Shown here piece by piece: positions 5,225-14,414 of a DNA stretch of 37,603 bases; the first letter of the stretch is position 1; each line of letters starts with the position of its first letter. The notes beneath the pieces were generated by a model. That model worked only from the letters and a program-made list of their open reading frames with translations. It ran no database searches and was not told where the DNA came from. The position numbers were made by a program, and so were the translations under genes. Source of the DNA: Peptococcaceae bacterium (lineage in GTDB: Bacteria > Bacillota > Peptococcia > DRI-13 > UBA5745); NCBI GenBank assembly GCA_031264885.1, contig JAISDM010000081.1, forward strand, positions 1 through 37,603, read 5' to 3'.

Positions 5225-6517
5225 TCACCCATGTGAAAAGGTTTCCATCGCGCGGCCTTTGTATAGCTGGTCCGCGAAATCGGATTCGCCGGGGATGCCG
5301 CAGGCGTCGGCGCGGCAGTGGGCGCAGTGCAGGAACTGTTGGATGTACGGGGCGGCGGCGGCGCGCGCCGCTTCGATTTGTTCGCAGGTGGGCGCGGGGG
5401 TGTCCGCGAATTCATACTGCGGGAGCAGCGGGATGATGTTGTGCTTGGACGCTCCGGCCTCCGATACGGCGCGGGCTATGTCCGCGATGTGACCGTCGTT
5501 GATTCCGGGGATCAGCACCGTGTTGACTTTCACTGTGATTCCCGCCGCCGCGGCTTCGCGTATGCCTGTCAATTGACTGCGGATGAGTATGGTTCCGGCT
5601 TCTTCGCCGCTGACGGCCTTCCCGCCGGTGAGGACGCGGGATACGATTCGGGCTGTGATCTCCGGATCCACCGCGTTCACTGTAACCGTCAGTGTCAGGA
5701 CGCCCACGCCGCGCAGGGCCTCCGCCTTCCCCGGCAGGGCCAGGCCGTTGGTGCTGACGCATTTAATCAGCGTGGGGTAGGATTTGTGGACCAAATGGAA
5801 GGTTTCCATCGCGTGGGGCGACGCGAACGCGTCTCCCGGCCCGGCGATGCCTACCACCGAGAGATCCGGGCATAGCTCCAGCGCCTGCCGGACGGTCTCC
5901 ACGGCATCTTTTGGGGCAAGGATTCCGGACGATACCCCCGGGCGGTTTTCCGTTGGATTGCAGCTTCTGACGCAGAACCGGCACTGTATGTTGCAGGCCG
6001 CGCTGACGGGCAGATGCAGCCGGGCCTTTCGCCTGTTCAGGTGATCGGAGAAGCAGGGATGGGAACGGATATCTGTGACGTTTGAATGGGCAGCCGCGGC
6101 ATTCGAACGGATATCGCCGGCGTTAGAACGGCCGCCGGTGGTACTAGGGCGGGCGTCGGCGCCGGCGGCGTTTGCCCGTCTCCTTGTTTTTTTTAGAAAA
6201 GCCGCGTATCCGTCCAGCAGATCCGCCACAAGGCCGCCGCGCTCCACGACCAATATATTCCTCAGATTCAGTTCCCGCCGCGCGAAATTCCCGATCCGCA
6301 TGGCGATCACCGTTTGGCAGTCCTCGATCAGTTTGAGGGTCTCCGCGAAGGAGACGGCGTTGTGACCGCCTCCTTCGCAGATGGGCGTGTTCTCACGTCT
6401 TTCGACGATTTGCCAGGTATAAGAATCCTCATCGACGTCCGCGATGACGAACTCCGGGCTGCGCCCGAAATGTACGGACACCATCGTGCCGAATTCCGCC
6501 GCTAACGCCACACGCAT
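5225..6517 (-). CDS. NifB-like radical-SAM metallocluster maturase with an N-terminal NifX/NifB-C-type (dinitrogenase FeMo-cofactor-binding) domain
   Basis: The N-terminal ~110 aa (VHFGRSPEFVIADV...IAMRIGNFARREL) resemble the NifX/NafY/NifB-C fold family. Next comes the NifB hallmark HPCFSDHLNRRKARLHLPVSAACNIQCRFCVRS (CxxxCxxC). The C-terminus carries HCAHCRADACG. I chose the ATG at 6517 (AGGAG 8 nt upstream) over the GTG at 6526. Confidence 0.8.
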   Translation of the reverse strand: MRVALAAEFGTMVSVHFGRSPEFVIADVDEDSYTWQIVERRENTPICEGGGHNAVSFAETLKLIEDCQTVIAMRIGNFARRELNLRNILVVERGGLVADLLDGYAAFLKKTRRRANAAGADARPSTTGGRSNAGDIRSNAAAAHSNVTDIRSHPCFSDHLNRRKARLHLPVSAACNIQCRFCVRSCNPTENRPGVSSGILAPKDAVETVRQALELCPDLSVVGIAGPGDAFASPHAMETFHLVHKSYPTLIKCVSTNGLALPGKAEALRGVGVLTLTVTVNAVDPEITARIVSRVLTGGKAVSGEEAGTILIRSQLTGIREAAAAGITVKVNTVLIPGINDGHIADIARAVSEAGASKHNIIPLLPQYEFADTPAPTCEQIEAARAAAAPYIQQFLHCAHCRADACGIPGESDFADQLYKGRAMETFSHG

Positions 6518-6556
6518 AATATTCACTCCTTTGATGTTTCGGCGAGTCCTTAACCC

Positions 6557-7438
6557 TTATATGGCCATAGCCTCGCCGCGCACGTCTCCGCTTTCGATGG
6601 CCAGGATCTGATCCGACCATTCCGCCGCCCAGGCGCGTAAATCCTGGAGGCTCAGGGGATTGGGCGTCTTGGACTCCGTATGGCCGCCGACGCGTTCGGC
6701 CAGCTGCCTGTAGACCTTCGCCTGAGCGGAATCCGGCTGCGCCTCAATGGTGGTTTTGCCGTTCAGCTCGCTTTGGGTCACCGTAATGGAACGCGGGATA
6801 TACTGCATGACCTGAGTATCCGTGCGCGCCGCGAAATCGTCGATGATCGCCTTCTGATAAGTGGAATCCGGAGCCACCGAATTGGCGATGACGCCGCCCA
6901 GAAGCGCGCCGCCTGAGTTTGAGTATTTCTGGATGCCTTTGAACAGGTTGTTCGCGGCGTAAATCGCCATGAAATCCGAGGACGACACGGTGAACACGTG
7001 CTGGGCTATGCCCTCGCGGATGGGTACCGCGAAGCCGCCGCACACCACGTCCCCCAGTACGTCGTAAATCACATAGTCCAAATCCAGTTCCTCAAAGATT
7101 TTTTGCTGCTTCAAAAGCTGCACAGCCGTGATGATGCCCCGGCCCGCGCAGCCCACGCCCGGGGCGGGACCGCCCGCCTCCACGCAGTAGATGCCGTTAT
7201 AGCCGGTAAAAATCGCCTCGTGGGCGTTGAACTTGCCCTTGTCGCGCAGCAGCTCCAGCACCGTCGGGATGTAACTGCCGTCCCGCAGGGTGTTGGTGGA
7301 GTCCGCCTTGGGGTCGCAGCCGAATTGCATCACCTTATAGCCCATATCCGATAGGGCGGCGCTCAGGTTGGACGTGGTGGTGGATTTGCCGATTCCTCCT
7401 TTGCCGTAGATCGCGATTTGCTTGATTTCTTTTGCCAT
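6557..7438 (-). CDS. NifH-family Fe protein (nitrogenase-like reductase component, ATPase)
   Basis: 293 aa. Walker [17 protein letters not shown]. The [4Fe-4S] ligand motifs GVGCAGRGI and [18 protein letters not shown] are present. GCDPKADST is present. RBS GGAGGA lies upstream. Confidence 0.9.
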
Positions 7439-10552: not shown

Positions 10553-11485
10553 TTATTCCGGGAAGAGCGCGGTGGATAAATAGCGCTCCCCTGTATCCGG
10601 GAGAATCACCACGATGTTTTGCCCCGCGTATTCCTTCCGCGCGGCGATCTTCGTGGCCGCGAACAGCGCCGCGCCGGAAGAAATGCCCACCAGGAGCCCT
10701 TCGGAGCGCGCGGCCTCTCTGGAAACCTCGAAGGCTTCCTGGTTTTTCACTCGAAAAATTTCATCCACATATTTGCGGCGGAACACTTTGGGAATAAATC
10801 CGGCGCCGATCCCTTGAATCGCGTGGGAACCGGACGGTTCTCCCGACAGCACGGAAGAATCGTAGGGTTCGACGGCGACGACGTGAATGGCGGGATTGCC
10901 TTTTTTCAGCGCCTCCCCGACGCCGGTGACCGTTCCGCCTGTGCCGACGCCGGATATGAAAACGGCCAGGTTTCCGCCGGTGTCCTCCAGTATTTCGGCC
11001 GCCGTGGTGGTCCGATGGATGGCGGGATTCACCGGATTTTCAAATTGCTGCGGTATGAAGGAGTTTTTGATTCGCGCGCTCAGTTCCTCCGCTTTGCGGA
11101 TCGCGCCTCTCATCCCGTCCGCGCCCGGGGTGAGAACCAGTTCGGCGCCCAGCGCTTTCAAAAGCCGCCTCCTTTCCAAGCTCATGGTCTCCGGCATGAC
11201 GAGAATGATTTTGTATCCCTTGGCCGCCGCCACAAACGCGAGCCCGATTCCCGTATTGCCGCTGGTCGGCTCGATGATCGTCGTTTCGCTGTCGATCCGG
11301 CCTTGCTTCTCTCCGTCTTCGACCATGGCGAGGGCGATGCGGTCTTTCACACTGCCGAGGGGGTTGAAATACTCCAATTTCGCGAGGATTTCGCCGGACA
11401 GGTTTTTGCCTGCCGAATATCGGTTCAAATGTAAGAGTGGCGTTTTGCCGATCAATTCGGTCAAGCTTTCCGCGATTTTTGACAT
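10553..11485 (-). CDS. cysK: Cysteine synthase / O-acetylserine sulfhydrylase family PLP enzyme (CysK/CysM type)
   Basis: LIGKTPLL, the PLP-lysine motif [11 protein letters not shown], the [10 protein letters not shown] loop and [10 protein letters not shown] are present. I chose the ATG at 11485 (AAGGAAGGGA 7 nt upstream) over the GTG at 11506. Confidence 0.85.
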
Positions 11486-11545
11486 TCGGATTTCCCTTCC
11501 TTTCACATTTTGTTTCAGAGACTTGTGTGGTCTTAGGCGGTGTTC

Positions 11546-11572
11546 CTTAGGACTTGTTTAACGAGTCCTAAG
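11546..11572 (-). other. Intercistronic 9-bp perfect hairpin (CTTAGGACT-N9-AGTCCTAAG) straddling the permease stop codon
   Basis: Positions 11546-11554 pair with 11564-11572. The permease TAG occupies 11570-11568 inside the stem. No U-tract follows on the minus strand. Confidence 0.5.
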
Positions 11573-12395
11573 CCGTTCCGGACTCGTCCCGCCAGCGGAA
11601 GCTGCGTTTTTCCACCGATTCCAGCACGAAGTTGATCGCGGTGCCGAATATGGCCATGACCACGATATAAGCGTACATTTCCGGGATTTTGAAGTTGGCC
11701 TGATAAAAGAACATGGCGTATCCGAGACCGCTGTTGGCGCCCATCATCTCCGCCGCGATGAGGATCAAAATGGAGAAGGTGGCGGACATGCGCACGCCGG
11801 TGAAGATGAACGGCAGGGCGGCCGGCAGTACCACGGAGCCAAACAGCCTGAGGGATCCCGTTCCCATAGCTCTGGCCGCTTTGACAAGCTGCGGGTCCAC
11901 GCTTCTTACGCCGGCGATGGTATTCAGCAGCGTGGTCCACAGCGCGCCCCACATAATGACGATGATCTTGGACGTTTCCCCGATGCCGAAGAACATCACG
12001 AACACGGGGAGCAGCGCCAGCGTGGGCATGTTGCGGAAGACCTGCAATAATGGATTGACCAGATTCCCGAAGCCCTTGAACCAGCCGATGGCAAGCCCGA
12101 GGGGGATGGCCACCGCGAGGCCCAGAAGGAATCCGAAGAAGGAACGCGTCAGGCTGATCGCGATGTTTATCCATAATTTGCCGCCGGCGGCTTCCCGAAC
12201 CAGCGCGAAAAAAACCCTGGATACGGGAGGGAAGAAGGCCGGCGTCGAGACCAACTCCAGGCGGGCGGCGAGTTCCCACAGGGCGGCGAATATAAAAATC
12301 GCGGCGGTGCTGGTGAAGATTTTTTTGAGCGCCGCGGCGGAAGCGCTTTGTTTGCCGGCCTGTTCAATGATAACGATATCTTTGTTTCTTTTCAT
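11568..12395 (-). CDS. ABC transporter permease, NitT/TauT (sulfonate/taurine/nitrate) family
   Basis: 275 aa from the ATG at 12395 (MKRNKDIVI...). It has multiple hydrophobic helices and a BPD-type EAA-like loop (AARAMGTGSLRLFGSVVLPAALP). The upstream part of the ORF-track ORF is Arg/Pro-rich non-coding read-through. Confidence 0.8.
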   Translation of the reverse strand: MKRNKDIVIIEQAGKQSASAAALKKIFTSTAAIFIFAALWELAARLELVSTPAFFPPVSRVFFALVREAAGGKLWINIAISLTRSFFGFLLGLAVAIPLGLAIGWFKGFGNLVNPLLQVFRNMPTLALLPVFVMFFGIGETSKIIVIMWGALWTTLLNTIAGVRSVDPQLVKAARAMGTGSLRLFGSVVLPAALPFIFTGVRMSATFSILILIAAEMMGANSGLGYAMFFYQANFKIPEMYAYIVVMAIFGTAINFVLESVEKRSFRWRDESGTA

Positions 12396-12441
12396 CTTAT
12401 CCTGCCTGTTGTTTGCTCGTATTAGGCGCCGCGGCGAATCC

Positions 12442-13332
12442 TTACAGCACTGCGGAGGGCGTGATTTCGTCCGCGAGGCTTCGGGGGGCGCCTTCCGGCC
12501 CGGAGCCGGTCTCCGGCGATTCTGTGTCATGCAGCAATTCCCATATCCGGTGTACGATGACGCCGTAATCGGCGGAGGCGCGCGCGTCGGCGTTAAACCG
12601 GGGGCGCGGCAGACGGATATCAACGATGTCTTTGATGCGCCCCGGGCGCGGTGTCATCACGACGACCCTGTCGGCCAGGAGTACCGCCTCCTCAATGCTG
12701 TGCGTGACGAAGATCACGGTTTTTTTTGTTTTGCCCCAGATCTTCAGAAGCTCATCCTGGAGGGTTTCTCTCGTCTGGGCGTCCACAGCGGCAAAGGGTT
12801 CGTCCATCAGAAGCACTTTAGGATCATAAGCCAGGGACCGGGCGATGGCGACCCGCTGCCGCATACCGCCCGACAGCTCGTTGGGATAGCGTTCCTCGAA
12901 GCCGTTCAGATCCACCAGGTCGATGTATGTCCGCGCGATCTCGGTTCGTTCTTTCTTGGGAATCCGCTTGACTTCAAGCCCGTACTCCACGTTGCGCAGC
13001 ACGGTGCGCCATGGAAAAAGAGCGTAGCCCTGCATAATAAAGCCTCTGTCCAGATTCGGCCCGGCGACTTCGCGGCCGTCGATGGTGATGCTTCCGCCCT
13101 TGGATTTGGTCAGCCCCGCGATAATATCCAACAGTGTGGATTTGCCGCATCCCGAAGGCCCGACGATGGAGACGAAGGCGCCGTCTTCTATGGAAAGGCT
13201 GAAACTCTCCAGGGCGACAAACTCTTCAAGCTGTTTCTTCCCCGGATTTCTTATATAATAGACTTGCTTCAGATTGTTGAGGATAATCTTCGCGTTACCG
13301 GCGCTTCCCAAAGCCGCTTCCATCAATGTCAT
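12442..13332 (-). CDS. ABC transporter ATP-binding protein, NitT/TauT family
   Basis: Walker A GPSGCGKSTLL, signature LSGGMRQRVAIARSL, Walker B LLMDEPFAAVD. The start is ambiguous. The ATG at 13332 overlaps the binding-protein stop (TAATG). The ATG at 13323 sits 11 nt from GGGAGG. Confidence 0.8.
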   Translation of the reverse strand: MTLMEAALGSAGNAKIILNNLKQVYYIRNPGKKQLEEFVALESFSLSIEDGAFVSIVGPSGCGKSTLLDIIAGLTKSKGGSITIDGREVAGPNLDRGFIMQGYALFPWRTVLRNVEYGLEVKRIPKKERTEIARTYIDLVDLNGFEERYPNELSGGMRQRVAIARSLAYDPKVLLMDEPFAAVDAQTRETLQDELLKIWGKTKKTVIFVTHSIEEAVLLADRVVVMTPRPGRIKDIVDIRLPRPRFNADARASADYGVIVHRIWELLHDTESPETGSGPEGAPRSLADEITPSAVL

Positions 13333-14414
13333 TACCTCCCGATTTCCGCGTCGGAGGCGGGCGGGTCGTTCGGCACGAATTGGTTGGTGTAACTCTCTTC
13401 GGGCGCAATGTCGCCAGGCGCCCAATAGCCCAATTCCTCGGACAGATCGAACCATAACTGTCCCCATTCCGGACGAATGTTTTTTTCCTGGCAATAGGAG
13501 TTGGAGCTGACCTCATCCGGTTCCAATCCCAGGTATTCCGCGCCTACCACCCTTGAATAGTCCGGGTTGGCTTCCATAAAAATCCTGGCCCGGTATGTGG
13601 CGTTGACGAAGCCCTGCACAATATCCGGATGTTCTTCGATAAAGGCGTCGCTGAACCCGCGCACAGCCAGGCCGCCTGCCGGCGTACCGACGACATCGTA
13701 GCTTTTGGCCGCCATGCGAACCCCTCCGGCCGCCAGGGCCACGCCGGCAAAGGGCGTATGAGAAGTTGTGGCGTCGATCTGTCCGTTGACGAGGGCCTGC
13801 TCAATCTGGCCGGCCTGGGGCATGACGACGTATTCCACCGATGCGGGATCGAGGCCTCTTTCGGATAAATACTTCGTGATAAATCCGTCAGTACAGACGG
13901 CCAGACCGCTAATCCCAACCTTCTTGCCGGCAAAGTCCTCGATGGATTGGATATCGCTGTCTTCCCGCACCAAGTATGTGATATGGGGATTGTCGGGATC
14001 ATCCACGAATCCGGGCGCCACAGCCAACGGACTCAGTCCCGCCAGCCGGGCCATCGCCACCTCCGTCAGATGCCCCTGAGTAAAAACGTCGATATCGCCT
14101 TGCTCCAGCGCCTGAAACTGTGTGATGCCCTGACCCAGCGTGCCGATATAGTCGATTTGGATGCCCTCATCCTCGAAGAACCCCAGTTTGTCGGCGATGA
14201 TGGTTTCACTGAAGGTGGTTTGGGTCACCGCGCGCAAGGTAAAAAGTTCACTGCCGCCGGTTCCGGCGCTGCCGGCGCCTGAATCGCCGTTCCCGTTCGC
14301 CGCCGCGGCGCCGGAACCCGAACCGCCGCAGCCCGCCGCCGCCAAAACAAACAGCAAGGTCACCGCAGCCGTTAATAATCTCTTTGGACGAATCATTGAT
14401 TTAGAATATTTCAT
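13332..14414 (-). CDS. Lipoprotein substrate-binding protein, NMT1/SsuA/TauA-like (NitT/TauT family)
   Basis: Lipobox LAAAGC follows a hydrophobic signal, then a Gly/Ser/Ala linker. The fold-family assignment rests on gene context and on length and pattern. It is the first gene of the operon. Confidence 0.7.
   Translation of the reverse strand: MKYSKSMIRPKRLLTAAVTLLFVLAAAGCGGSGSGAAAANGNGDSGAGSAGTGGSELFTLRAVTQTTFSETIIADKLGFFEDEGIQIDYIGTLGQGITQFQALEQGDIDVFTQGHLTEVAMARLAGLSPLAVAPGFVDDPDNPHITYLVREDSDIQSIEDFAGKKVGISGLAVCTDGFITKYLSERGLDPASVEYVVMPQAGQIEQALVNGQIDATTSHTPFAGVALAAGGVRMAAKSYDVVGTPAGGLAVRGFSDAFIEEHPDIVQGFVNATYRARIFMEANPDYSRVVGAEYLGLEPDEVSSNSYCQEKNIRPEWGQLWFDLSEELGYWAPGDIAPEESYTNQFVPNDPPASDAEIGR

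Follow-up and report, generated by a model that had tools for sequence, protein, structure and literature searches.

A NifB-like maturase with an N-terminal NifX-type domain in a nitrogenase-like gene cluster of a Peptococcaceae bacterium

Background

The stretch of DNA analysed here (hereafter the window) comprises 37,603 nucleotides of contig JAISDM010000081.1 from the Peptococcaceae bacterium assembly GCA_031264885.1. On its minus strand lies a sulfur-scavenging operon in which the genes of an ABC importer are followed by cysK, nflK, nflD, nflH and, as the last gene, nflXB, which encodes a NifB-type cofactor maturase and is the subject of this paper (Table 1). Its product joins a NifX/NafY-type domain at the N-terminus to a NifB-type radical-SAM core in a single polypeptide. 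We consider the protein best named NflX::NflB (MarB-like), a cofactor maturase that has two domains and belongs to a nitrogenase-like (NFL) system, and hold this explanation, taken as a whole, to be likely. A preliminary description of the window, made from the sequence alone, had already noticed the unusual domain order and had attributed it to a circular permutation of canonical NifB.

Nitrogenase-like enzymes that use carbide clusters for C-S chemistry form a new and active field, in which it matters in practice, for heterologous expression, which maturase and carrier each NFL enzyme needs. In the case of the related MAR enzyme, a carbide-type large cluster is already known to be needed (PMC12552129, PMC13753814); MAR activity requires MarB or NifB, NifB can replace MarB, and NifEN is dispensable (PMC13753814). 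A survey of NifB proteins in 2017 (Arragain et al., PMC5715403) described three architectures, including the radical-SAM domain alone and NifN-B-X, and a NifX-first form was not among them. In 2026, both MarB fused to an NflX domain and systems in which nflX is a separate gene were reported to be functional in R. rubrum lacking nifB (PMC13753814). That study writes both 'MarB-NflX' and 'NflX-MarB' and leaves the domain order undiscussed, and the phrase 'N-terminal NifX' was not found in the literature searched.

Results

A single gene with a NifX-first domain order

The maturase gene runs uninterrupted from 6517 to 5225 on the minus strand (430 amino acids, aa) and is separated from the nifH-like gene by a spacer of 39 nt. 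The frame is also open from a GTG at 6526, which overlaps the Shine-Dalgarno sequence and is a less likely start than the ATG at 6517. The sole product listed for this gene in the public protein collection has 295 aa (P0004; window 5225-6112) and begins at residue 136, inside the linker between the two domains, so that the NifX-like domain is absent from the existing annotation. Taken at face value, this call would favour two separate products, with the radical-SAM part starting downstream and the NifX-like part being either a protein of its own or an untranslated remnant. Such an arrangement is highly improbable, since P0004 starts at an ATC codon without a ribosome-binding site upstream, residues 102-155 contain neither a stop codon nor an in-frame ATG, GTG or TTG, the ATG at 6517 has AAGGAG at -8, and the N-terminal domain carries invariant residues across 96 full-length homologues. 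The 295-aa call is regarded as an annotation artefact, and the single gene without a downstream start that had been read from the sequence stands.

Three parts make up the protein: residues 11-104 form a NifX/NafY-type domain, residues 151-415 a complete NifB radical-SAM core, and a disordered linker of ~35 aa joins the two. Pfam PF02579 (Nitro_FeMo-Co) matches residues 11-104 at E 5.8e-17, with 62.2 bits against a gathering cut-off of 26.3, and the Pfam Radical_SAM match covers residues 170-349. In TIGR01290, the model of canonical NifB, residues 147-413 align with model positions 6-280 and the N-terminal ~96 residues with positions 328-425, so that their order is the reverse of that in the model. 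Likewise, an AlphaFold2 prediction based on the 96 homologues (mean pLDDT 84.6) shows two domains modelled with confidence, whereas residues 123-147 come out as disordered. The NifX-first domain order is real, as the preliminary description had stated.

Table 1. Features of the nflXB gene and its operon. Coordinates are positions in the window.
Feature	Coordinates	Strand	Details
Shine-Dalgarno AAGGAG	6526..6531	-	8 nt 5' of ATG at 6517; read directly from sequence
NifX/NafY-type cofactor-carrier domain (residues 1-117)	6167..6517	-	Pfam PF02579, alignment, pLDDT
Ala/Arg/Asn/Ser-rich flexible linker (residues 118-150)	6068..6166	-	low pLDDT, hypervariable
Two decayed 42-nt (14-codon) units, PSTTGGRSNAGDIR / SNAAAAHSNVTDIR	6064..6147	-	each ends in exact 11-mer GATATCCGTTC (coding strand)
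NifB-type radical-SAM carbide-synthase core (residues 151-415)	5273..6067	-	phmmer PDB, Foldseek, TIGR01290, invariant ligands
Fingerprint positions (residues)			HPC 153-155; C175/C179/C182; E190-x-R192-P193; AGPG 225-228; TVTVN 277-281; C398-x2-C401-RADACG
C-terminal tail ...LYxxRxMETFSHG and stop codon	5225..5272	-	L418, Y419, F427, G430 conserved
nifH-like Fe-protein gene (MarH-like)	6557..7438	-	PF00142 E 1e-97; directly upstream of maturase gene
NflD-like catalytic subunit, 529 aa	7469..9058	-	PF00148; three P-cluster-type Cys, plus Cys299 and His449
NflK-like subunit, 448 aa	9063..10409	-	PF00148; encoded ahead of D
cysK (O-acetylserine sulfhydrylase)	10553..11506	-	TIGR01139 433 bits, above cut-off
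ABC importer genes: NMT1/SsuA-type binding protein, ATPase, permease	11568..14414	-	Pfam NMT1, ABC_tran, BPD_transp_1; starts approximate

The radical-SAM core

With phmmer, residues 151-415 matched the PDB NifB structures 7JMA, 7BI7 and 6Y1X at E ~1e-81 and ~50% identity. A Foldseek search with the AlphaFold2 model returned the NifB entries 7BI7, 6Y1X, 7JMB and 7JMA as the best structural matches (target TM 0.85-0.97, 46-51% identity), a whole-chain comparison that is dominated by the radical-SAM core and silent on the N-terminal fold and on domain docking. The motifs HPCFS, LPVSAACNIQCRFCVRS and HCAHCRADACG, pointed out previously, are present, and all six NifB fingerprints of PMC5715403 (HPC, CX3CX2C, ExRP, AGPG, TxTxN and Cx2CRxDAxG) are found. 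In holo-NifB 7BI7 the fused K-cluster is held by C18, H31, C115, C260 and C263 (PMC10114646). Alignment to 7JMA/7BI7 places C155, H168, C253, C398 and C401 of the window protein at these positions, and these ligands, together with the radical-SAM cysteines Cys175, Cys179 and Cys182, are invariant in the alignment of the 96 full-length homologues. The enzyme looks fully competent, and catalysis is predicted.

Some side observations concern the same region. Cys186 (residues 184-188; window 5964-5978) lies three residues earlier than the plug-loop cysteine of M. thermautotrophicus NifB (7JMA/7BI7), and many homologues have none. The LYxxRxMETFSHG tail closes the proteins of the NflB clade, fused and unfused alike, and in the window protein the AMETF of the tail and an internal AMETF (residues 236-240; window 5799-5813) are coded by an identical 15 nt, CGCGATGGAAACCTT.

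The N-terminal domain

The N-terminal domain is modelled with pLDDT > 90 and a beta-alpha pattern. His16, the histidine of an HFG motif, falls in the same alignment column as A. vinelandii NifX His35 (9IAN_E) and also matches the HFG histidine of 1P90; the cofactor-binding histidine of this family is His35 in NifX and His121 in NafY. NifX His35 is the NifB-co ligand in the NifEN-NifX hand-over complex (PMC13128457), and each of the 79 NflX domains compared, whether fused or stand-alone, keeps His16. Among the 96 homologues His16, Cys47, His52 and Asp66-Cys67 are invariant or nearly so.

In 38 fused proteins the loop R-x-N-x-P-x-C-x2-G-x-H, which includes Cys47 and His52, and Asp66-Cys67 (residues 41-67 in all) are invariant, and the loop motif is present in 33-37 of 41 stand-alone NflX proteins (loci L016-L091); A. 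vinelandii NifX has nothing that aligns with Cys47 and His52. These two residues could be a second cluster ligand.

Instead of carrying the product, the N-terminal domain might donate or hold precursor [Fe-S] clusters, or serve the radical-SAM site as a regulator or protective cap, with the finished cluster leaving otherwise, e.g. via a NifX-like protein encoded on another contig of the genome (C84, see below). This would agree with the absence of Cys47, His52 and Cys67 of the NflX domains from aligned A. vinelandii NifX, with the finding that K. oxytoca NifB can do without its NifX-like domain, which has been proposed to regulate NifB-co flux (PMC5715403), and with the stand-alone NifX-like gene that precedes MarD-like genes on C84. 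However, the histidine that corresponds to NifX's NifB-co ligand is invariant, and the literature assigns NifX-type domains to the binding of L-cluster or FeMo-co (PMC13128457, PMC13753814), and we judge a role other than that of product carrier to be improbable.

The linker and its repeat

The linker is predicted to be disordered (AlphaFold2 pLDDT < 50 at residues 123-147). It spans ~38 aa between the two domain models, compared with a family mode of 11 aa, and is the second longest among 37 fused proteins. Both its length and its sequence are hypervariable and differ even from those of P0002 and P0003, homologues with 82% and 78% identity. A 42-nt direct duplication had been reported from this segment, and GAACGGATATC does occur at both 6063 and 6105, i.e. 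at a spacing of 42 nt, giving GDIRSN and TDIRSH in the protein. The duplication is less pronounced than this description implied: in the best register the 42-nt units are identical at 28/42 positions, an in-frame exact 11-mer within 60 nt was obtained in 29 of 1000 codon shuffles (p ~0.03), and neither Tandem Repeats Finder nor the repeat finder run on the linker called it. Most likely the repeat is a neutral slippage remnant, a decayed duplication in a hypervariable spacer.

Distribution and origin of the NifX-first form

Relatives of the maturase are encoded by 347 stretches among GTDB contigs (one genome per species), and architectures were counted in the best 80 of these loci. The NifX-like domain (X) and the radical-SAM domain (B) form a single X::B open reading frame in 37 of them, so that the NifX-first architecture is not rare; X lies just upstream of B in 11 and just downstream in 14, 18 loci have B only, and no B::X fusion was found among the 80. 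A word-indexed protein search yielded ~90 full-length co-linear homologues among the best 120 matches, from metagenome-assembled genomes (MAGs) of Synergistaceae, Oscillospiraceae, Lachnospiraceae, Clostridium, Treponema and Fusobacteriaceae, whose source names are 'nitrogen fixation protein NifB' or 'radical SAM protein'. Of the representatives of 50%-identity clusters, 297 are NifB-like at E <= 1e-30; in the best 150 of them, three proteins are NifX-first (P0003, P0122 and P0199) and in about fifty the NifX-like domain is C-terminal. Pfam scans confirmed the NifX-first order of P0122 and P0199 and the canonical order of P0128 and P0132. The NifX-first form is a minority, yet it is well populated, widespread and little described.

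How this order arose bears directly on the circular permutation proposed in the preliminary description, according to which the changed order of the two halves would moreover impose a different geometry on the hand-over of the cluster to the D/K proteins. The swapped halves relative to TIGR01290 would fit a permutation, as would the X domain's 25-35% identity to the NifX-like domains at the C-termini of canonical NifBs. Its identity to stand-alone NflX proteins is about the same, so this short domain cannot resolve its own origin, and we relied on a maximum-likelihood tree of the radical-SAM domain. There, the 37 fused rows (36 loci and the window) together with three split X-then-B rows are set apart from the other rows by a branch that has 98% SH-aLRT support, and the label requires no more than three changes, against a mean of 26.8 for shuffled labels. 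In one tight subclade the fused loci L030 and L035 adjoin the split pairs L033, L050 and L051. The X gene of these pairs extends just past the common ...KVHYFEK helix, followed by a stop codon, a short spacer with a ribosome-binding site and a new ATG. Similarly, X and B are separate genes in a genome from the same taxonomic family as the window, where the order is cysK-D-K-X-B-H. (A frame of 512 aa that looked like a canonical NifB in a related genome turned out to be a stop-to-stop artefact overlapping nifH.)

Since fused and split X-then-B forms interleave on the tree and their junctions differ by a stop codon and a ribosome-binding site, and since a B::X fusion is missing from the 80 nearest loci, the NifX-first order is the outcome of the fusion (with occasional fission) of adjacent nflX and nflB genes and not of a rearranged canonical NifB. 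The different hand-over geometry is likewise not borne out. In holo-NifB both ends of the core, the Cys18 stretch and the Cys260/263 strap, cover the same cluster cavity (PMC10114646), so that a tether at either end can reach it, and the linker is too long and disordered to imply a fixed geometry. A permuted NifB with altered hand-over is therefore quite unlikely.

The fused form is confined to this genome within its class: among 88 species genomes of the class, nine possess a NifB-like gene and no other has the fusion. The nearest homologues sit in termite-gut-type MAGs of other phyla. This single occurrence, along with the mixture of phyla in the fused clade, suggests that the H-XB module was acquired laterally.

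The operon and its relatives

The neighbouring gene products find their best PDB matches among MAR proteins: the H protein in R. rubrum MarH (9FMG_D; E 2.8e-146, 489 bits), the D protein in MarD (9FMG_A; 210 bits, 5e-61, ~31% identity) and the K protein in MarK (9D9U_C; E 6e-66). MarD Cys270 and His429 ligate the L-like mar2 cluster in R. rubrum (PMC13753814), and Cys299 and His449 of the window D align with them. That the enzyme needs a carbide-type large cluster, as had been proposed, is plausible, given that the window D keeps these mar2 ligands.

The co-occurrence of the fused gene with NFL clusters extends to the 36 related loci of the fused type. Genes for D/K are found within 7 kb in 28 of them, a nifH-like gene is located directly upstream in 23 and cysK is present in 23. 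The D protein beside fused genes is of the window type (23) or of a paralogous type (4), and beside unfused B genes it is MarD-like in 33 of 39 cases. The NifX-first maturase thus marks one NFL clade and not the best-studied MAR clade. Clades outside Group IV-C displayed no MAR activity, and their functions are largely unknown (PMC13753814).

Nitrogenase-like genes in the rest of the genome

A single NifB-like gene is present in the assembly (3.26 Mb, 96% complete), alongside three genes of the NifH-like type and twelve matches to Oxidored_nitro. Ten of the twelve Oxidored_nitro proteins were scanned, and none of the ten reached the cut-off of the nifD, nifK, nifE or nifN model, which leads us to regard the genome as lacking a nitrogenase; a true nitrogenase NifB is accordingly ruled out.

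Contig C84 (18.7 kb; locus L012, 8170-15431) carries the order NifX-like - D''-K'' - K'-D' - cysK and has neither a nifH-like nor a nifB-like gene. In comparison with MarD, D'' scores 372 bits, the window D 210 bits and D' 188 bits; D' is a paralogue of the window D, with 38% identity to it. The window D/K pair as the MAR orthologue of this genome is ruled out, the D'' protein being far closer to MarD. The Cys/His cofactor ligands are kept only in the window D, D' and D'' and are missing in three other D-like proteins. On contig C91 (L013, 6419-10010), a 777-aa frame combines a NifH/CfbC-like ATPase (residues 4-262) with a NifD/NifE-like domain (residues 358-720) and is adjacent to a K-like gene; the D part of this fusion is without the Cys/His ligands.

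With a single gene of the NifB type and three D proteins that keep the Cys/His ligands, the window XB is probably the shared maturase of three D/K pairs with L-cluster-type ligands, and the adjacent H is probably shared by the three pairs as well.

Discussion

The following route of cofactor maturation is suggested by homology. The C-terminal two-thirds of NflX::NflB would fuse two [4Fe-4S] clusters and insert a carbide derived from S-adenosylmethionine, giving an L-cluster or NifB-co-type [8Fe-9S-C] core. The N-terminal third would be a NifX-type carrier, with His16 as the counterpart of the NifB-co-binding His35. Tethered by the disordered linker of ~35 residues, this carrier could collect the product from the cluster cavity and pass it straight on to apo-NflDK, presumably without a NifEN scaffold.

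Several observations weigh against our interpretation of the protein and its product. The TIGR01290 score of 291.1 bits remains below the equivalog cut-off of 343.65. The plug-loop cysteine that follows CX3CX2C (C62 in 6Y1X) has no fixed position in the maturase family, which in turn possesses an extra invariant Cys406 (within CxxCRADACG) and the conserved ETFSHG tail; owing to the latter two features, the product could differ from NifB-co. The extra conserved Cys47, His52 and Cys67 of the N-terminal domain could bind something other than a finished L-cluster, and the relative placement of the two domains is predicted without confidence (pTM 0.66). Finally, the identity of the window D to R. 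rubrum MarD is low (~31%), and a closer MarD homologue is encoded on another contig.

Beyond the name NflX::NflB, a more far-reaching proposal can be offered tentatively, as a possibility: that the NifX-first fusion is a fourth, independently evolved NifB architecture which co-evolved with an uncharacterised Group IV cysK-nflK-nflD clade distinct from MAR, that the single XB and H serve as a hub for three D/K enzymes, and that Cys47/His52 act as a second capture ligand. In any case, the main by-products of this analysis are the link between the NifX-first form and one D/K clade, the genome layout of a single maturase with three clients, and the truncated public gene call. Because the NifX-first form tracks one uncharacterised D/K clade, it provides a simple genomic marker for that clade, and H plus XB represent a compact candidate cassette for the maturation of several NFL enzymes. 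The public annotation is truncated to the radical-SAM part, so that the fusion is easily missed. The tethering of NifX-type carriers to either end of NifB in separate lineages argues that selection favours proximity over a particular geometry.

Comparison with known systems

Canonical two-domain NifB (A. vinelandii, K. oxytoca; TIGR01290) shares with the window protein the same two domains, the fingerprint motifs and the K-cluster ligands, and L-cluster or NifB-co is the presumed product of both. In contrast, the window protein has the reversed order, a score below the cut-off, the ETFSHG tail and the extra Cys406; its genome lacks nitrogenase and nifEN among the proteins scanned, and its fusion arose separately. 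The stand-alone archaeal NifBs of M. thermautotrophicus (7BI7/7JMA) and Methanothrix thermoacetophila (6Y1X) possess the same radical-SAM and K1/K2 ligands; they differ from the window protein in having no carrier domain and in the position of the plug-loop cysteine. As for the carrier, the NifX/NafY chaperones (A. vinelandii NifX 9IAN; PF02579) have the same HFG histidine, a similar size and a similar beta-alpha pattern, whereas the domain described here is tethered to the synthase, has the extra PxCxxGxH loop and is devoid of the NifE-binding C-terminal tail of NifX.

MarB and the NflX/MarB fusions (PMC13753814, PMC12552129) are likewise NifB homologues encoded beside nifH/D/K-like genes for organosulfur use. 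The published NflX/MarB fusions resemble the window protein further in uniting NifX-like and NifB-like domains in one polypeptide within an NFL gene cluster. Since all NFL-associated fusions found here are NifX-first, the published ones, which include the tested proteins of Propionispora and Pararhodospirillum oryzae, are probably NifX-first as well, even though the paper itself names both orders. Unlike these MAR systems, the window has the gene order K-D-H-XB, its D/K proteins show only ~31% identity to R. rubrum MarD, and its D belongs to a clade distinct from that of the closer MarD homologue of the same genome. Lastly, shared as well as multiple Mar components have been described in R. 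palustris (bioRxiv 10.64898/2026.08.20.746119), and the layout of one maturase and three clients in the present genome recalls the shared components of those systems.

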